NCBI GenBank assembly: GCA_965219955.1
Contig: OZ244799.1
Span: forward strand, 1,888,001-1,952,000
Source of the DNA: a bacterium
Lineage (GTDB): Bacteria; UBA8248
Length of the DNA stretch: 64,000 nucleotides
Direction: 5' to 3'
The notes beneath the pieces were generated by a model. The model worked only from the letters and a program-made list of their open reading frames with translations, did no database searches and was not told where the DNA came from. Position 1 is the stretch's first letter; each line of letters begins with the position of its first letter. A program made the position numbers and the translations under genes. This document shows, piece by piece, positions 1,761 to 63,409 of this stretch.

Positions 1761-4700
1761 CTAACGGATCGGCTCGAATACGAGTTCCGGCACGATCACT
1801 TCCCAAGCGTCGCATCGTATGGAATTGTGATACTTGGGCTGCGAGGCTTCACGGCTCCACCCGCTGACGGCCCACACTTCGGCGGAACGGCACCGGGTCC
1901 CCAGCGGCGGCTCGAAACTCCCGGCGAGGCGTCCCACCACCACGCCCCTCTGGTCCCGCAACTCCCAGCGACCCTGATCCGTGATGCGCGTATCGAGCCG
2001 GTCGCCCGGCGAGAGCCCGGCGATGGCGCGGTGAACCGGATGCCGGGCGGCTCGCCGTCCGGCGAAGCCCAGGTCCACTTCCTTAAGACTCGGTCGGGCG
2101 TAGTGGTACCCGAGCGTCGTGGGGGCCGGCGGAAGCTCGGCCGGTTCGCGGCGTATGACGGCGGGATGATCCGTCAACTCGTCCGGGAACCCATTGGACT
2201 CTTCGAAACGAGCGAGCGTCAGGGTCTGCCGGACGCGCGTCATGGCCACGTAGTACAGACGGCGCTCCTCATCCCCGTTTTGCCCGACGCGGCTCCAGCC
2301 GCCGTCCAGCACGGCCACGTGGTCGAACTCCAGTCCCTTGGCGCCATGGGCGGTCGACACCAGGAGGCCGCGCTGTCGCCTGCGCACCTCCCGGCCCCAC
2401 TCAGCCAGCCATTCGATAAAATGATCCACCGGCGTCTCCGCTCCGCCGGTTTCGAGCGCGTGCTCCTCGACGGCCTCGCGCAGCAGGTCATTCCAGGCAC
2501 CGGGCGAGTGCGCTTCCGCCCAACCGGCGAGAGCCGCCCCGTCGACCACGCGGGGTCTGCGCGCGCGCAGCCATTCGAGGAACGCGCGGGTCTCCCGCAG
2601 ATGCCAGAAACCCGGAATTTCTTCATCCGCCATCTGAACCGGAACGCCCTTCGCTTCGCAGAAGGCGCGCACGGGGAACAAATACTTCCACTCGCGCGCG
2701 AGCACAGCGCAGCGGGACCAGTTCCAATCGGGCGTTAGCTTCGCGAGGCGCCGGAGTTCCGCCATGACGGCCCGCGCCTGATGGAGCGGGTCGCGGCCCG
2801 CAGGCAGGATTTGCACACGCCCCCGCGAAAGCGGGTCCAGTTTTTCCCACGCGCCGCCCGGCGGGTCATTCTCGCGCGCGCGGTTGACGTGGATCGCGTG
2901 GTCGGTTTTCATGCGTTCGCGGGCTTGTTCGATCACCGCGTTGGCCGCCGCCACGACGTGGGCCGTGGAGCGGTAGTTCGCCGTGAGATAGGTGGGGCGG
3001 GCTTTGTAATCCGCCCCGAAGCGGCGGATGTACTCCACCAAGGTGCCCTTGAAGGCGTAGATGTTCTGATCGTCGTCGCCGACCGCAAACAGGGTGAGCT
3101 TGCCGTCCTCGTCATCGAGCGTCCGCCCGGCCAGGGCCGAGATCAACGCGTACTCTTCTTCGCCGACGTCCTGATATTCGTCCACCAGTATCCAGCGGAA
3201 GCCCGCCAGCAGACGCTCGCGCTGCTCATCCGCCTCCTCGGTCGGCAGGCCCTCTCCGCGCAGCAATTCCGCGGCGCGGCGGAGCACCTCCCGGAACGCC
3301 TCCTCGTCAGGGCGTTCCGCCTGGTTCCGGAAACTGAACCCGGTCAGGCGCATCGCCAGGGCGTGGCAGGTGAGGACGGTGACGCCTCGGGCGTCGTTTC
3401 CGATCAATTCCCCGAGGCGGCGGCGTATCTCGACCGCCGCGTGGCGGTTGTAGGCCAGTGCAAGAATGCTGCGGGGACTCTCCCGCCTCACGCGGATCAG
3501 ATAGGCGATGCGGTGCACCAGCACCCGCGTCTTGCCCGAACCGGGGCCCGCGAGCACCAGCACGTTCGTCTGCTCCCGGTCGTCGGCGACGATGCGCTGC
3601 TGGACGGGGTTGTTCAGGTTTTGAACGATGGCTTGCCAGGACGCGGGCGTGGTCTGGCGTCCGATCTCCCTGCCCCGGCCCGGCAGCCAGCGCGCGAGAA
3701 ACGCCTCCTCCGACAGCGTGAAGTAGTCCTTCGCCAGACGCTCCGCATCGCGCTCGGCGTCGAGGCCGCGCTTGGCGAACTCCGCCATCACGTGGACGTG
3801 CAACACCTGTCCCTTGTAATGAAGGGCCAGGGGTTTGAAGTCCTCATTCGTGAAGCCGCGCCGCTGCCGGTTTTGCAGGCGGATGGTCATGGCGCGTCGG
3901 AACACGGCGAGGCCCTTGTTCAGGCGCATGACCTCCATTTCGTGCAGCCAGAGCAGGGCGCGGTCGAGGAGTTTATCGGGGTGGCGGACCCTGCTCTTCA
4001 ATATCAGGTCGGACTCGATCGCCTCCAGCAGCTTCCCGAGCGTGGTTTCCGCCAGCAGATCCACGCCGCGGCTTCCGGGCGGCAGGCGGTCGAGGAGGTG
4101 CTCCAGCAGCCGTGAGGCCGCCGCGCGCCGGAGTTCGGCCGTCTCCTCCAGGTCTTCCCACTCCCGGCGCAGCGTCACCCAAACGGTCTCCGCGTCCCGT
4201 TTCCGCACCGTCAGGCTCCCGCCCGCGCCGTCCTCGCCGCGGCCGTCCCGGGCGATACCTCGGAGGATGCGCAAAAGCCGTTCCGGCAGCGGATCGGGCA
4301 AGCCCTCGTCCCTCAGTTTTTGGGCGGCGATGCGCAGGTGAAGCGTCGACGCCTCTCCCTTCCCTATATCCGGCGCCGCCTCGCGCAAATACGCGATCAG
4401 GGCGGTCTCCAAGGCCACCGCTTCTTCGAGGCGCTTTTGGGAACTGCGCTCCACGCCGGCGTGGACGAACGCGGTCAGCGCCGTGTCGTTGCTGGCGATG
4501 CCAAACCGTTCCAAGTCGTTCAGTGCGCGGCACACATCCTCGGAACTCAGCCCCGATACTCCCATCAGTTCGTCGGTGCTGACACCCTCGTCCGGGGGGG
4601 CGTCGATGAGCGCTTCGACGATGCGCAGCAATTGGCCGCGATAGGCTTGGGTAATGTTCGCTTTCGCGAGCTGCTCTTTGGCCTCCTCGACCGAGCGCAC

Positions 4701-56885: not shown

Positions 56886-57737
56886 TCACTTTCTCGCGCC
56901 ATATGCGCCCATGAGATCGCTGGTTGAGAACGTGCCGCCGACTTCCTCATGGTTCGGCCCGTAAAATGTGCCGTTGATGTTTCCCCAATCGAAAGTCCCG
57001 TTATTTTCGACACTGCGGTTGCGCCATTCGATATTCTCGTAGCTCCCACCCGTGCTTCTGCCTCTGATATTCGTGAAGGAAACATCCATCCGGGCATCAA
57101 CGGCGGACGCCCTGAATTCGAGCCGGGCATCCCCTTCGAGATGCTCTCCCCTGTTCTCTTCTGACGAATCCACCCCCAGCATCACGCCCTCGTAGGTGGC
57201 CGATGTCGCCGGAACACTTCTTGACTTGTTTCCTGCAGACATCCCGAAGCCCATTTCGAAATGAATGCCTTGGATGGTGGTCTCACCCACGAATGCTCCG
57301 AAAAGATTGTGACCCATCCATGCGCCATAACCTTCGACATTCACATCGCCATCATCCATCGGAATGGTTTGGGATGCGCGGTATAATTCAACACCATTCC
57401 TGCCTGCGATTCCGGCGAGCTGAAAGTCATCCGAGATCGAATCTTCCGCATCGATAAAGTCTCCTATGACGAATCGACCTGAATACCCCAATTGTGCATT
57501 GCTCGTGACGCAACCATCGGGAGAGCAGGTGGTGTCAATGGGGAAATCCACCGCCGCTCCTTGTTGGTCTCGGCCATACAGGTACATATCGCTCATCAGC
57601 AATAGCGCATCGTGATTCAACTGGTTGAGTTTGTACGCATCAGGCATTATTTCAGGTTGTTGTGACATCCCGGAGCCGCCACCGCAACCGAGCGCAAGAA
57701 CCGCTACCAAGGAAATTGCCAGAATGTTCCTGATCAT
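56886..57737 (-). CDS. Lipoprotein with TbpB/fHbp-like barrel
   Basis: Lipobox ALGC-GGGS; SATYEGVMLG...GDARLEF...MDVSFTNI...GTFYGPNHEEVGGTF...GAYGA. Confidence 0.82.
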   Translation of the reverse strand: MIRNILAISLVAVLALGCGGGSGMSQQPEIMPDAYKLNQLNHDALLLMSDMYLYGRDQQGAAVDFPIDTTCSPDGCVTSNAQLGYSGRFVIGDFIDAEDSISDDFQLAGIAGRNGVELYRASQTIPMDDGDVNVEGYGAWMGHNLFGAFVGETTIQGIHFEMGFGMSAGNKSRSVPATSATYEGVMLGVDSSEENRGEHLEGDARLEFRASAVDARMDVSFTNIRGRSTGGSYENIEWRNRSVENNGTFDWGNINGTFYGPNHEEVGGTFSTSDLMGAYGARK

Positions 57738-57988: not shown

Positions 57989-60900
57989 CTAGAAGCGCAT
58001 CCTAAGAGTCACCCGCCCGGCGTATTCCGAATCGTCGGAACCCAGGCCATACACCGACACCTCGCCGCCGAGCGAGAAGCGGCCCTTGCGGTAGACGCCG
58101 CCCAGCCCGAACAGGAACCGCGTCTCGGGCGATTTCGATACGAGCCTCTCTCCCGACACGTCGACGGCAGTCTCCGCGTCGCCGAGTTTCTGTTCGAGGT
58201 CCACCGAACCCCGTAGCGAGAACATCCCTCCATCCCAGGTGCGCTCCATCTTGGCCACTAATCCGACGCCGCCCGCGAGGCGCCTCGCATCATCAATAGA
58301 GAATCGAGCGCCCGCCGAGTCGTTGAATTTGTCGATGGAAACTTCCGAGCGCGTCGCCCAGGCGCGGGGCGTGAGGTTCATCCGCTCGCTCATCTTGATA
58401 CGCCTGCCTGCTTCGAGGCTCATGAGTGTGCCGCGCGAGGCGGCGTCGCGCTTCAAGGTTCCCACATCCGCGTCGCCGGAGATGATGTCCACGTCGTAAT
58501 CCGTCAGCGAGAGGCTCCCGTTCGCGTAGTAGCCGCCCGCGCCCTTCCAGGAGGCGGCCAGCGACACGCCGGTTCCTTTCGCCTTGATGTCTCCGCCGCC
58601 TGTTGGTGCGGAAACGTCCGCAGAACCCTTCACTTGGAGCAACGATATCGAGCCGGTGAAATGCTCTCCCATTCCGATGTCCAGCCCGGCTTGCGCCGTG
58701 AAGCGATTGAAGTCGTATTCCGCGCCGACGCTCGCGCGCTCAGGCTCGTACGAGCCCCTGCCGCCGGAGAGCTTTGTCCACACCGGCGAGCCGGGCGAGC
58801 GTAACCGTTCCCCTTCAGGCGCCCCGCTGTTCAGGCGAAGTAAAAAGCCGGGCAGGGCCTCGTAGAGAGCCGCGCGTGGAGCGTAGACCTCGAGAAGGTT
58901 GCTCGAGTTGCGGGCTTCGATAACACCCGCGGCCAGCTCGCCGGCGGCCTGGTCGCCGTTCGTCAGAAAATCGGCCGCCGCATTGCCCAAGCCGCCGAAT
59001 ACATACTTAACGACCCGGCCGCCGCCTTTGTGAAAAACGGACACCGCTTTGCCTGAGCCGTCGAACACACGAATCGGCGGATTCATGCAGTCCGGCGGCG
59101 TGCCGACCTGCCCTTCCGGACAGGTGGGCGGCGTCTCGATGAAATCTCCGGCGGAAAAATCCCGGTCAGCGATGACGCCCGCAGCCGGTTCGCTGATAAC
59201 CCAGTTCACCGGGTTCGAGCCGATACGCTCCGTTACGGTAACCCCTTCCGCTCTTATCGTGACATTCCACGCCCCGTTGTGAGCCACAGCGTTGGGGACG
59301 ACGCCCTTCCCGCCATCGTGAAGCATAACCTCGTTGACCACGATGGTGGTCTCTCCCCCGTCGTTGATAATCCAGTCGTCCCCGATTACGTCACGCACCC
59401 GGCGGCCGTTCAGATTCATATCGACAAGCAGCCTGGGATCATTTCCCGCTGCATGGATTGCGACCCCATACTGCGTGCGTATCGTTCCCTCGGGTCCGAT
59501 GCAGACCTCGCCCCCGGCCGGGAGATAAACACCCGCCAAGCTGTACACGTCGCCGAATATGGGCCTGTCCACCACGACCTTTCGAGGCATCGGCGGAGGC
59601 GGCGGAGGCGGCGGTGGTGGAGGCGGCGGTGGTGGAGGCGGTGGTGGCGGCCGCGTCTCGTTGAAGTCCGCCGACGAGAAATCCCGGTCGGCGACGACGC
59701 CTGCGGCCGGTTCTGTGATCACCCAGTTCGCCGGGTCCGTGCGATCTACGGTGACGCCTTCTTCTCTCATACGGACGTTCCACGCCCCGTTGCGAGCTAC
59801 CGCGTCGGTGACCGTTTCGCCGGCGTGTAGCACGGTGCCGTTGACCGCGATGGTGGTCTCTCCCCCGTCGTTGATGATCCAGTCATCGCCGATGGCCTGC
59901 GACACCCGGCGGCCGGCGAGGTTCAGATCCACACGCAGCCTGGGTGGAATGGCCGGGAGCACGTTATCCGGGTCGGTATTGTCTTCCGCTACGGTGCCCG
60001 TGGCCAGGATCGCAATACCCGAGCCTGAGCTGATGCTGCCCTGTGGCCCGATGATCACTTTGCCGCCACCGGCAAGGTACACACCCTCTGCCGCACTGTT
60101 TATTGCCCCGTTGACCGTAACGGTCTGCTCGCGATAGCCCAATGCATCCAGGGACGCCGTAAGGAATGGCATGTTATTGCTGACTGCGCCCACCTGCACG
60201 CCACGTGCGCCCGCACCGCTCACATCGATCCTGCCACCCACCGTGACGTCCATGCTGCGTCCTGCAGCCGTCCCTCTATGATAGACCACGATGCCGTGAC
60301 CATTGGGACCCGTCGTGGTGATCCTGTTATTTGCTCCCGTGGCAAGGTTGACGTTGCCGGATCCAAAGTGCAGGCCGTAAATACCGTAAGAGTGGGTCCC
60401 GGCCGTAGTGATGGTGCCCTGCGTGTCGACATGGACGTCGCCGGTACCCTCATGAAGTCCGTAAATGCCGTGGGCCGAAGTAATGGCGTTATCCTGCGAG
60501 ATCAAACCCACACTTTCCGTGGTGATGGCGTAATCGCCTTTTATGTCGATCCGGCCCTCGCCGCTTGAGCTTGCATGATGCCAGCTGAGAACGCCATGTC
60601 CCTGTGTGCCTCTTGTCGTGATGCTGCAGGGAACTGCAGGGGAGTCCGTACAGACCAGATTGATCGCCTGGTCACCTGTACCGGAATGCTGGCTAATTAT
60701 GGCATAACCGATATCACCTCCGGTCATGATTGTAGTGTCCCTGAGCGTCATGTGGACATCGCCAGGCCCGCCCTCTCGCAAGGCAAAAAGGCCGTGCGAC
60801 CTGTTCGTCGTAACGGAAATCCCCTGGGTCAGGAGAGTGATGTTGTTTACCTGGTCTGCAGTGTAATTCTCTTTTGCGATGCGGACACCGATTCCTGCGG

Positions 60901-61489
60901 TATCAATCGTCACACCGCTCCTCAAGTCCACTTCAATGTGGCCATTGCCCCTATGCTGGGCAACCAGTCCCCAGGAAGTAGTATCTTGTGTGCGGATTCC
61001 GGTATCTTCCAATGTGAAGGTGAGGGTGCCTTCACCACTCAAGTGGGCCCAGACACCGTGTGTAACTCTGCCCGTCGTGTCGATCATCGAGCGGGTGGTT
61101 GTCATGCCTGTTGTGATACCGGCGATGCTGATATCCACATCCCCGCTGCCGAGATGCGTAGCCCTCACACCCGCGTTGGTGGTGCCGGTCCCAGTCAAGT
61201 CGATATCGATACCCATCGCATCGATGTCGATATTGTTGGTCGATGTTTCACTTTCTTCACATTCAATATGATTCCCTGTGCCAGGTGTGTTGCTGCATAC
61301 AGGCGCAGCCCGCACTTCGCCTTGGGCAAAGGCAACCAGCAGAACCGAGGCGCAAAGCCTGAGCAAGACCCGCCTCAGTTCACCGGCACACCTCCGCTTA
61401 CTCGCAAATATGAGCATATGCACAGCCTGTAACGTAGAGCGCCCCAGCAAGTCAGCGGAAGAGAGTCGTGGCATATGCCTGAAGGACAT
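57989..61489 (-). CDS. Autotransporter (type Va) adhesin-like protein
   Basis: Thr/Gly-rich beta-helix-like passenger, a duplicated module, a 20-Pro tract, linker YAPRAALYEALP, and a C-terminal barrel ending LRMRF. The start is uncertain (61489, 61417, or 61679 via the repeat). Confidence 0.92.
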   Translation of the reverse strand: MSFRHMPRLSSADLLGRSTLQAVHMLIFASKRRCAGELRRVLLRLCASVLLVAFAQGEVRAAPVCSNTPGTGNHIECEESETSTNNIDIDAMGIDIDLTGTGTTNAGVRATHLGSGDVDISIAGITTGMTTTRSMIDTTGRVTHGVWAHLSGEGTLTFTLEDTGIRTQDTTSWGLVAQHRGNGHIEVDLRSGVTIDTAGIGVRIAKENYTADQVNNITLLTQGISVTTNRSHGLFALREGGPGDVHMTLRDTTIMTGGDIGYAIISQHSGTGDQAINLVCTDSPAVPCSITTRGTQGHGVLSWHHASSSGEGRIDIKGDYAITTESVGLISQDNAITSAHGIYGLHEGTGDVHVDTQGTITTAGTHSYGIYGLHFGSGNVNLATGANNRITTTGPNGHGIVVYHRGTAAGRSMDVTVGGRIDVSGAGARGVQVGAVSNNMPFLTASLDALGYREQTVTVNGAINSAAEGVYLAGGGKVIIGPQGSISSGSGIAILATGTVAEDNTDPDNVLPAIPPRLRVDLNLAGRRVSQAIGDDWIINDGGETTIAVNGTVLHAGETVTDAVARNGAWNVRMREEGVTVDRTDPANWVITEPAAGVVADRDFSSADFNETRPPPPPPPPPPPPPPPPPPPPMPRKVVVDRPIFGDVYSLAGVYLPAGGEVCIGPEGTIRTQYGVAIHAAGNDPRLLVDMNLNGRRVRDVIGDDWIINDGGETTIVVNEVMLHDGGKGVVPNAVAHNGAWNVTIRAEGVTVTERIGSNPVNWVISEPAAGVIADRDFSAGDFIETPPTCPEGQVGTPPDCMNPPIRVFDGSGKAVSVFHKGGGRVVKYVFGGLGNAAADFLTNGDQAAGELAAGVIEARNSSNLLEVYAPRAALYEALPGFLLRLNSGAPEGERLRSPGSPVWTKLSGGRGSYEPERASVGAEYDFNRFTAQAGLDIGMGEHFTGSISLLQVKGSADVSAPTGGGDIKAKGTGVSLAASWKGAGGYYANGSLSLTDYDVDIISGDADVGTLKRDAASRGTLMSLEAGRRIKMSERMNLTPRAWATRSEVSIDKFNDSAGARFSIDDARRLAGGVGLVAKMERTWDGGMFSLRGSVDLEQKLGDAETAVDVSGERLVSKSPETRFLFGLGGVYRKGRFSLGGEVSVYGLGSDDSEYAGRVTLRMRF

Positions 61490-61679
61490 GCGATCTAATC
61501 TTGAGGCTTGAGGCTTGAGGCTTGAGGCTTGAGGCTTGAGGCTTGAGGCTTGAGGCTTGTTCCAAATTAGGTTCAGGACCCGCTGATGTCAAGTTTGTTT
61601 GAGTCTCAGTGCTCTTTGCGCCGGAACCATGAAACGCCGTTGAACCATCGCTCTCAGAAAGGGATAATTTCAAGTGCAT
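61452..61679 (-). CDS. Short upstream ORF crossing the heptamer repeat; the putative out-of-frame 5' end of the autotransporter
   Basis: ATG 61679; encodes QASSLKPQASSLKPQASSLK. It is offset from the autotransporter frame by 190 nt (1 mod 3). Confidence 0.5.
   Translation of the reverse strand: MHLKLSLSESDGSTAFHGSGAKSTETQTNLTSAGPEPNLEQASSLKPQASSLKPQASSLKIRSHVLQAYATTLFR
61500..61559. repeat. Simple sequence repeat (TTGAGGC)8
   Basis: Eight perfect 7-mers at 61501-61556 plus partial flanking units. Confidence 0.97.
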
Positions 61680-61937
61680 TCCGCCTATCGCTCTTTGAAG
61701 TTCAGTGAGAATTTACGCCCAAGGAGTCCTTCGGTAAAAAGGGCTGAAACTCCGCCTTGGGCATTTCTGGTGCGATGAATTTCGGGCGAATCTCCTGTTG
61801 AGTGAGGTTTTTCTTCTAGGTGGATGCCCTCACTCGGTAAAATCACGATGATAATAAAGTATATAAGGCAGAATTTTCAAGACTGATGGGGCAATGTTCT
61901 TCTCCCATGAGCCGTCCCTACCCGAGGACCTTGCATG

Positions 61938-62769
61938 GCCGGGTAGGCGGGGGCATTGCTGCGCCACTCCCCCCACAGAGCCGGACGTGCGGGCACTACC
62001 GCATCCGGTTCCTCACGTGTCGGGTTTGCTCAAGGACGTTGTCGCCCCTGATCCGCAGATGCCGGGAACCACAGCCCCCCGGCGCCTGGCATGGCTATCC
62101 GCCGCCGTTACGTTGACGCGAGTGACGGAGCTCAGTGTCTCCCCCGCGTGTCCCGTCAGCGGGTCCGATCACGCGGTGCCCCCCTTCCCTCGGACGGGTC
62201 CCGATGGCCACGGTTCCCCGCCTTCAACGGTAATATGAGGGCGCTACGACTCCCGACACTGCATCCATCGGACTTATTGTTTTCGCCTTTCAGTACCATG
62301 CGCGCCTGCTCTGTTCGTGCCGTCGCTCACGCGCTCCCGACGCCCCGCAGGCAGGGTATCATCGGGCCGGGGTTTGGATTTAGGGCCGGTTACACCCCCG
62401 ACCGGCCATCGTTCACATGGACAGTGCCGGGCCTCTCAGGTTCCCTGGCGACCCATCCCGTGACTTTGCAGCGTTCTACGACCCCGGAGGGTCCTGCAAC
62501 GCCTCACCCGTAGCGGCGTCTGCGGTGCAGCCCCCATGACACTTAAACACAAAGGCACCCTCGCATTACGATTTCGAGGCTCAATAGCGCTGCTTCGCCA
62601 CCCCCTGTGTACGCTTCTCGACGTGCGTTGCCGTCCGCCACGCAACACTCGGTTCCGGCTGGCTGGCATGGCCTTTGCCGCGCGGGAGTTGAACCCGCTG
62701 GGTCGCGATGAAGAGTTTCAGCGATTTCAGGTCATCACATCCTCCCTTCCAGAGCTTAGCCTGACGCAA
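61938..62769 (-). ncRNA. ORF-less group II intron (IIB-like, bacterial class D/E-type), ~832 nt
   Basis: On the minus strand it begins TTGCG. Domain I motifs gaagcgtacacaggg and attgagcctcgaaa. Domain V gaaccggatgcggtagtgcccgcacgtccggctctgtgggggg. Domain VI ends cctacccggc. Only a stop-containing RT N-terminal trace remains. Confidence 0.88.
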
Positions 62770-63409
62770 TAAACGTTCGGCGGCAAGGTGATGGAAGACT
62801 AGAAAACACAGGCTCAAGCTGGCTAGACCGCGTAATTCCTAGAAATGTCTTCGGCATCGCCTGTGTTATCACCCCACGACCGAACGGTTATTACCCGGCC
62901 CCCGACACTCGCCCGCAGGGATACGCAGGGGTTGGAATGAATCCGCTTGCGGCTTGATTACAGACTCTACGGGGCCGATTCGGGATCAGGCCGGAATCAG
63001 TTCGGAAAATGAGTTAACAGATATAAAATCAACGCGATAGCGAAATCTCAGACATGACGGAAAATTCTCGATAACCCCGGATTCCTGGATAATTCGATAA
63101 ATTCAGATAAATTCACGGGGTTTTTCGATAAATAAATGGGAATTTATTTGCTTTGAAATGACGCCGCGAAATCCGGGCGCAGGGGGGATTCTGCCATGGC
63201 CCGCCAGACCTGCGGTGACGGCAAATGCGGGGAGTTGCGGGAGCGGAATTCCCCCGGATTCACGGGTCACACGGTCCGCAAGGATCCGGAATCGGCGGAA
63301 ATCGCGATGATTTTACGGGGAGTTCCTGAACACAAGACAGGCGGAACGATTGTGATATCCTGCTTTAGGTACTACATGTAATATATTGATATATAGTCGG
63401 TTATTTATT

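Follow-up and report, generated by a model that had tools for sequence, protein, structure and literature searches.

We analysed a 64,000-nucleotide (nt) stretch of contig OZ244799.1 (the window), from a genome of the GTDB lineage UBA8248 that we denote G000, in which a gene for a large autotransporter is preceded by a perfect array of CAAGCCT heptamers. Unless stated otherwise, positions are those of the window and descend along the reading direction of the locus; the features are collected in Table 1. The gene product matched the autotransporter beta-domain PF03797 over residues 903-1144 (E 2.3e-25), and a signal-peptide-like stretch, RRVLLRLCASVLLVAFA, aligned with homologues. By likeness to these homologues, the mature end A-P-V-C was predicted from 61306. 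With a signal peptide, a passenger and a C-terminal beta-barrel predicted from its sequence, the gene has the parts of a type Va (classical) autotransporter and was assigned to that class.

Table 1. Features of the autotransporter locus, in window positions (aa, amino acids; ORF, open reading frame).
Feature	Position	Strand	Source
Autotransporter ORF, 1166 aa from ATG 61489	57989..61489	-	ORF list
Beta-barrel of autotransporter	58058-58783	-	PF03797
Signal-peptide core of autotransporter	~61372-61320	-	Likeness to homologues
Entry ORF, 75 aa at 8 units, ATG 61679	61452..61679	-	ORF list
Conserved 3' flank CAAGATTAGATCGCATGTCC	61484..61503	-	Comparison with other arrays
Perfect heptamer array (CAAGCCT)8 + CAAG	61500..61559	-	Tandem Repeats Finder and sequence reading
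Weaker promoter-like TTGACA-17-TAATTT	61564..61592	-	By eye; ends 4 nt before array
Promoter-like TTGAAA-18-TATTAT (10/12)	61851..61880	-	Promoter scan

On the minus strand, (CAAGCCT)8 occupies 61559-61504 and is followed by CAAG at 61503-61500. Tandem Repeats Finder reported period 7, 8.6 copies, 100% matches and no indels, and its score of 120 was the highest of 28 rows for the window. The initial annotation, which had placed (TTGAGGC)8 within an ORF starting at 61679 and stopping at 61452, was therefore exact. Read on the sense strand, the array is free of stop codons in all three frames and encodes QASSLKP heptads; the opposite strand carries TGA in each frame. A scan for perfect short-unit repeats over the whole of G000 (4,283,615 bases) returned only two perfect heptamer arrays, and the next longest perfect repeats were a 12-mer in four copies and a 10-mer in three. 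The length and perfection of the array are far beyond chance.

We then recomputed the reading frames across the array. The ATG of the entry ORF and ATG 61489 lie 190 nt apart (61679-61489), which is 1 modulo 3, so that removing 7 nt or adding 14 nt joins the two ORFs in frame. With 7 or 10 units a single stop-free ORF results, of 1227 aa at 7 units ((61679-57992+1-7)/3). The offset, the fusion by loss of one unit or gain of two without an intervening stop, and the length of the product all agree with the values first proposed for this locus. The autotransporter frame is itself open upstream: it crosses the flank and all of the array, extends to a point 29 nt ahead of the array (1199 aa with the array included) and contains no start there. 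The frame of the entry ORF is open from 153 nt before the array and is the sole frame open into it.

Ten nt separate the end of the array from ATG 61489, and beyond the array the three frames have different fates. The flank frame AGA-TTA-GAT (R-L-D) is that of the autotransporter and reads R-L-D-R-M-S-F-R. The second exit frame is closed by TAG 61497-61495 after two codons, and the third runs for 16 codons, overrunning ATG 61489 and ATG 61474, to TGA at 61454-61452. The exit frames thus measure 1170 aa (the gene), 2 aa and 16 aa: one continues into the protein and the others end soon. The third frame is the one taken by the entry ORF at 8 units. The three exit frames keep the design found in the family of other arrays described below.

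A search of G000 for further CAAGCCT arrays, suggested with the initial annotation, yielded one more, before a twin-arginine (Tat)/PAP2 lipoprotein gene. This second array (L001, genome positions 1863698-1863767) lies 86 kb away on the same strand and consists of 9-10 units followed by CAAG-ATTAGATCGCA; the 11-nt flank ATTAGATCGCA occurs in G000 only at the two arrays. The gene behind it encodes 458 aa with a twin-arginine/lipobox N-terminus and a PAP2 domain, and its ATG stands 109 nt past the array. The entry ORF of the second array starts at an ATG 79 nt upstream, with AAGG 8 nt before that ATG. At the present array length it exits in the R-L-D frame and ends at a TGA that precedes the ATG of the PAP2 gene by about 27 nt, just ahead of the gene's AAGGA. 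The orthologue of this locus in a related genome (G003) keeps both the ATG at -79 (counted by hand) and the stop position.

Arrays of at least three CAAGCCT units were found in 5 of 51 genomes of the class, G000 counted, and four of these five fall among the 23 genomes of the genus. The arrays have 21, 22 and 28 units in G008, 12, 16-17, 25 and 26 in G022, and 12 in G044, which belongs to another family; in G003, the array of the PAP2 locus is broken over two contig ends with at least 12 and at least 7 units. Between species, the unit number differs at orthologous loci: the autotransporter orthologues, whose C-terminal parts are 71-77% identical, carry 8 (window), 22 (G008) and 16-17 units (G022), and the PAP2 lipoprotein orthologues carry 9-10 (G000) versus at least 12 (G003, where the assembly breaks in the array). 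The window array is the shortest of the family, copies of one or two units aside. The flank CAAG-A(T/A/G)TAGATCG was present in 8 of the 10 CAAGCCT arrays first compared, and the autotransporter orthologues of G008 and G022 have the common N-terminus MFGI(H/Y)FVFIERWLN. The genes behind the arrays encode autotransporters and proteins with fn3, Calx-beta, cadherin-like, LRR, SRCR and Ig-like domains.

The arrays of G008 and G022 are preceded by a 321-nt leader module, which gave 11 and 9 matches in these two genomes and none in the other 21 genomes of the genus. Homologous copies of this leader carry one unit (two copies), two degenerate units, or 12-28 units. The long arrays are all perfect, whereas the adjoining leader is only 82% identical between orthologous loci of G008 and G022. 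At such a divergence a static stretch of 110-150 nt would have gathered many substitutions, so the arrays appear to be renewed, as slippage does, and we infer from this comparison that continuing slippage keeps them so. Three further observations concern these leaders. The module (L037 3730-4050; L177-L196) holds a promoter-like site, TTCACA-18-TATCCT. At three array loci (L033, L036, L038), LysR-type genes are found upstream. Between the array and the autotransporter gene of G008 (L037 ~4360-4420) lies an ORF fragment, MTDDYTAD..., that matches the N-termini of genes behind other copies of the leader module, possibly a trace of cassette-moving recombination.

Two genomes of the same genus carry arrays of a different heptamer, CCGAACT, with 20 and 20 units in G014 (L173 4002-4141, L174) and 14 in G009 (L175), before the same ATTAGAT flank as that of the CAAGCCT arrays. 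CCGAACT is the exact letter-reversal of CAAGCCT, and these arrays surfaced through the reversed-pattern control of the genome search. The G009 array stands 2 nt before an ATG without a Shine-Dalgarno (SD) sequence.

To describe translation into the arrays, we tabulated the three frames of 11 other arrays examined in the class, the G003 contig end being excluded for too little upstream DNA. Each of the 11 has a single frame that runs open into the array from an ATG preceded, at 4-8 nt, by an SD sequence (SD-ATG). Relative to the array, this ATG stands at -73 nt in five cassettes, -80 with AAGGAG (L036), -69 with GGAGG (G044), -47 with GGAGG at both G014 loci, -79 at the second G000 locus and -50 in G009. 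A stop closes each of the remaining two frames within a few dozen bases, and neither has more than a start without a clear SD sequence. By comparison, an SD-ATG entry ORF was found at 10% of random genomic positions and in 5-6% of random sequence. When the loci are grouped, in our judgement, into five independent sequence contexts, four have such an entry ORF; the fifth context, that of the window, has no good SD sequence.

At three loci the array must be translated. Both G014 loci have a flank whose R-L-D frame runs into the signal peptide (RLDSPARRLAGSARRAAGLLVIALLASLALLPPAPAQA) of proteins of 1353 and 1346 aa, with fn3, Calx-beta and PPC domains in a domain scan of the first locus, and no ATG, GTG or TTG lies between array and hydrophobic core at either. 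In a Thiomargarita metagenome-assembled genome (L113), (CAAGCCT)8 stands directly before the signal peptide of an 833-aa ORF, again with no ATG, GTG or TTG between. With no canonical start between array and signal peptide, translation must pass the array at these loci. At both G014 loci the 20 units are out of frame with the SD-ATG, and 18 or 21 units would be in frame. All three read-through loci are, like the window, out of frame with their own SD-ATG.

At least half of the sampled words occur in each of nine public sequencing runs from three studies. Sponge metagenome is the label of five of these runs, a single coded organism label is borne by the other four, and one run is possibly the source of the assembly. 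Since the matching runs are sponge metagenomes, the lineage is taken to be host-associated, which fits its earlier description as probably non-pathogenic and uncultured. As a weak lead to its taxonomy, an RpoB fragment had Pseudomonadota as the commonest group in the protein atlas.

We favour, at a probability of roughly 40%, the reading that the window array belongs to a lineage-specific family of slippage-prone cassettes, each made of (CAAGCCT)n with CAAG-A(T/A)TAGATCG behind it, and that it would act as a contingency switch on translation frame, uncoupled at its present 8 units. In this sponge-associated bacterium, such cassettes would switch genes for secreted or surface proteins from their 5' ends. 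Slippage would vary the unit number in the living population and, through use of an upstream start, expression. Ribosomes would start at TTG 61673 or ATG 61679, on mRNA from the 61880-61851 site, and would then read the array, whose unit number modulo 3 would set the exit frame. With 7 or 10 units they would exit in the R-L-D frame, that of the autotransporter, and make one long protein, from which the extension would be cleaved off together with the signal peptide (ON). At 6 or 9 units, translation would end at TAG 61497-61495; because this stop is 5 nt before ATG 61489, re-initiation there would be possible. In the assembled state of 8 units, ribosomes would overrun ATG 61489 and ATG 61474 out of frame and stop at 61452, leaving only the weak downstream starts ATG 61417 and TTG 61366, and the gene would be OFF or expressed at a low level.

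The view of the initial annotation that this is a contingency locus seems well supported by sequence comparison: it gained from the second array, the 1-28 units in relatives, the surface-protein genes behind the arrays and the three read-through loci. Its stronger part, that the gene is ON only as a 1227-aa fusion and is OFF at present, could not be upheld in the same way, given the poor ribosome-binding site, the missing coding signature of the entry ORF and the presence of ATG 61489.

Several observations weigh against a frame switch at the window. ATG 61679 (-120) has no spaced SD sequence, and the sole SD-like motif is AGGCGGA (61686-61680), which TTG 61673 (-114) follows at 6 nt. The 40 codons of the entry ORF had a GC content at third codon positions of 0.42 and gave a codon-usage log-likelihood delta of -0.077, against +0.26 for in-frame gene windows, in a low-power test by which the autotransporter itself reached +0.10 to +0.16. 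Between array and signal peptide, the in-frame ATGs 61489, 61474 and 61417 could free the gene from the frame of the array, and TTG 61366, with GAGG at 61376-61373 and a 6-nt spacer, is in frame after the array as well. The caveat originally attached to this locus, that ATGs 61489 and 61417 might bypass the switch and that no start has a strong SD sequence, was thus right, and ATG 61474 adds to it. A single changed letter in the conserved flank accounts for ATG 61489; the other cassettes carry AAG, GAG or GCG at that place. A fusion would place about 105 residues before the signal-peptide core and about 123 before the cleavage site, compared with pre-sequences of 45-67 residues in homologues from the protein search and 74 in G008. 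When the array-containing open frame was compared with 5.8 billion proteins, 3 proteins among 1502 candidates were returned, all ordinary homologues, and none had the heptad. Elsewhere in the family, the second array of G000 cannot fuse to the PAP2 lipoprotein gene, and the arrays of G008 and G022 stand 100-300 nt before genes with their own SD-ATG and are not fusible.

The surroundings of the window array point in the same direction. The DNA upstream of the array and that between array and signal peptide are unlike the leaders of the orthologues; resemblance sets in within the part that encodes the signal peptide and becomes clear once the mature N-terminus is reached. The locus has thus been rearranged, and it may be a partly decayed switch. 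In its full form, this alternative holds that the cassette arrived by recombination, that the upstream start was lost and that a point change made ATG 61489, leaving the array a hypermutable passenger with little or no effect. It would account for the unique AT-rich stretch that lies upstream of the array and adjoins an ORF-less group II intron remnant, for the shortness of the array within its family, and for an entry ORF with neither coding signal nor good SD sequence. It sits less well with an array that is still perfect, with three exit frames of the family design and with exactly one frame open into the array, as at the working-looking loci.

Data from other strains bear on the same question. 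Four runs were examined as k=31 contigs, each of which stops about 30 nt into the array. In contigs of two other strains, 2 of 120 positions of the entry-ORF region differ, one synonymously and one as Leu/Val; the adjoining 257 bases on the upstream side, where one contig gives cover, show 11 differences. The low divergence of the entry-ORF region is a mild sign of constraint, which speaks against decay. On the other side, 60900-61439 of the gene is represented, in another strain, among RNA-library contigs, which hints weakly at expression in an array state that is unreadable from contigs. These contigs also hold array words at a depth of 210 versus 8.9, which cannot be assigned to the window locus and may belong to the second locus or to other organisms; 61440-61519 and 61597-61924 have no cover, and missing cover is not evidence. 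The array-flank pattern gave no hits against metagenome contigs of the Joint Genome Institute (JGI). Weighing these points, we regard a decayed or bypassed switch as distinctly unlikely.

We also considered control through the untranslated leader, in which promoters and RNA structure come into play. In 61200-62300, two promoter-like sites were found versus 0.5 expected, and a transcript from the site at 61880-61851 would include the entry ORF. The second, weaker site, TTGACA-17-TAATTT, was seen by eye; the promoter scan does not call it, as its second hexamer fails the rule. If this proximal site were used, the array would form the 5' end of the mRNA. A sigma-70 promoter just before each array was considered and is kept only as a possibility: the scan does not call those sites, and calls TTCACA-18-TATCCT about 210-240 nt upstream instead, in four cassettes, and TTGAAA-18-TATTAT in the window. 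Terminator or attenuator hairpins after the G008 and G022 arrays were not supported, with 0-1 weak sites, at or below the shuffle expectation.

A model for such control exists in hmw1A and hmw2A of nontypeable Haemophilus influenzae. PMC12721329 describes (ATCTTTC)n before the adhesin genes, transcribed in the 5' untranslated region (5'-UTR), with expression dropping as the repeat number rises, and two repeat regions that recombine with each other; it invokes a long hairpin, between about 10 repeats and a G-rich arm, together with RNase III. By analogy, the window array would lie in an untranslated 5' leader, the gene would start at ATG 61489 or 61417, and unit number would tune mRNA level, stability or initiation in a graded manner without period 3. 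The position of the proximal promoter-like site before the array and of ATG 61489 behind it would suit this, as would the finding that 8 of 9 CAAGCCT arrays (relatives plus the second locus) have an unfusible gene start 100-300 nt downstream, the ninth being the contig end. The span of 1-28 units among paralogous leaders is what graded control would predict, and the leader RNA, being unstructured, C-rich and G-poor, would suit binding of ribosomal protein S1 or Rho.

Several results speak against this rheostat. The leaders fold no better than shuffled sequence (z versus shuffles +0.53 for 61560-61340 and +2.05 for the second locus) and contain no HMW-like hairpin, so the hairpin/RNase III mechanism does not apply. 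The proximal promoter fails the scan criteria, the flank at the window is read in the frame of the gene, and the SD-ATG entry ORFs with the three obligatory read-through loci indicate that the family's arrays are translated. A leader rheostat is the main rival reading, if on the unlikely side. As a comparison, hmw1A/hmw2A remain the nearest system in setting, with a heptamer before a large secreted adhesin and two loci per genome with a common repeat. They differ in the hairpin and in the secretion route, HMW adhesins being secreted by a two-partner system and the protein here being an autotransporter.

Arrays of at least four CAAGCCT units also occur at 120 or more loci from many phyla, among them Planctomycetota, Pseudomonas/Stutzerimonas, Wallbacteria and Acidobacteriota. 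Those of other phyla (L040-L119), among the matches listed, are often mixed with other CCTCANN heptamers. Arrays of at least seven units in other phyla are, among the matches listed, mostly intergenic and have no common coding context, except for the Thiomargarita locus. This wide spread would agree with a further alternative, in which the heptamers, as RNA or DNA, form a row of sites just ahead of the start codon that a regulator, or S1, Csp or CsrA-like proteins, would bind. So would the ends of the window and G009 arrays, 10 and 2 nt before an ATG without an SD sequence in each case. A precedent is given by the TAACTGA direct repeats, which PMC4679880 reports just before start codons, by a few nt in Beggiatoaceae, as well as in cyanobacteria and Bacteroidetes, with no known means of transfer, and which are proposed there as sites of a post-transcriptional regulator. 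The two systems resemble each other as heptamer direct repeats before start codons in environmental bacteria of distant phyla.

The differences from TAACTGA are as clear. Beggiatoa has 169 sets of 2-6 copies (PMC4679880), versus two arrays in G000. The TAACTGA unit contains stop codons, its sets are many and short, and they have no link to surface proteins, whereas the two G000 arrays are long, open in all sense frames and stand before secreted proteins. Our units have no stop codons and lie within reading frames at three loci. No candidate binding protein came to light, though no search was aimed at one. We consider an array of binding sites very unlikely.

Returning to the frame switch, its nearest relative in mechanism is neuO of Escherichia coli K1, on the CUS-3 prophage. 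According to PMC13001214, (AAGACTC)n lies in the 5' coding region and the gene is ON if the number of units is divisible by 3; unit numbers range from 3 to 53, and 42 of 64 genomes are OFF. The likeness lies in a heptamer between start and protein body with a full product that depends on frame, a geometry matched by the G014 and Thiomargarita loci and by the window. The systems differ in that an enzyme domain follows the repeat in neuO and the signal peptide of a secreted protein follows it here; that a conserved flank sets the exit frames here; that our arrays also stand in unfusible leaders; and that the window has no good upstream start and is known from sequence alone. In neuO-type switches no alternative start lies between array and functional protein, and the window has such starts. 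A second likeness is to the Opa proteins of Neisseria, in which CTCTT pentamers lie in the signal-peptide coding region of several loci per genome and turn each ON or OFF by frame. There, too, a slippage repeat sits in the N-terminal leader of an outer-membrane protein at several loci per genome. The Opa pentamer differs in encoding part of the signal peptide and in belonging to paralogous genes, and here unrelated genes carry the cassette.

Going beyond the single locus, we can picture a portable cassette, made of a leader ORF with its start, the array and the frame-fixing flank, that moves between unrelated surface genes by array recombination. It would provide sponge symbionts with a combinatorial set of adhesins and proteins with eukaryote-like domains that could be switched back and forth, its unit could be replaced wholesale within a genome (CAAGCCT versus CCGAACT), and its C-rich, G-poor, unstructured repeat RNA would couple frame to premature termination where the gene has its own start. 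We regard this wider proposal as unlikely.

Further features of the neighbourhood are recorded here. An imperfect triplet repeat at 59591-59655 (CGG/GGN, about 21 copies) corresponds to a run of 22 prolines in the autotransporter passenger, against 7 in the G008 orthologue, and is possibly a second, in-frame site of variable length. Directly behind the autotransporter, at 56886-57737 on the minus strand, a 283-aa lipoprotein matches the TbpB_B_D beta-barrel (E 7.5e-07); the pair of autotransporter and TbpB-like lipoprotein is also present in G008 (L037 7930-8859). The ORF-less group II intron remnant occupies 61905-62691 on the minus strand, with a match to Rfam RF02005 (D1-D4) at 62472-62691 (136.9 bits) and a domain V/VI-like end near 62010-61905. 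A copy 74-86% similar to it, of about 3.6 kb, at genome 2635999-2640219 is presumably the full-length element. The 10-mer AGATAAATTC, or its rotation AATTCAGATA, occurs in tandem 2.6 times at window 63091-63115 and three times at genome 1428555-1428585.

Repeat-driven phase variation is textbook biology of host-adapted pathogens. We found no report of it in sponge symbionts in the literature searched, a body outside which most subscription journals lie; a study that joins the terms 'sponge symbiont' and 'phase variation' reportedly, by its title, concerns Pseudomonas isolates. The system is thus of a known kind in a new setting, an uncultured sponge symbiont. What is new is the cargo of autotransporters and eukaryote-like-domain proteins, the conserved flank that fixes three exit frames, the use of one cassette both within reading frames and in leaders, and the exchange of one unit for another between species that retain the flank.

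The switch-like cassettes precede autotransporters and cadherin-like, LRR, fn3, Calx-beta and SRCR proteins, that is, eukaryote-like classes, and such domain classes are thought to govern how sponges treat their own bacteria. Single eukaryote-like proteins are said, in a 2026 study (PMC13747020), to alter phagocytosis by sponges. Should unit numbers vary within the population, these uncultured mutualists would be hedging their bets on the surface that they present to an animal host.

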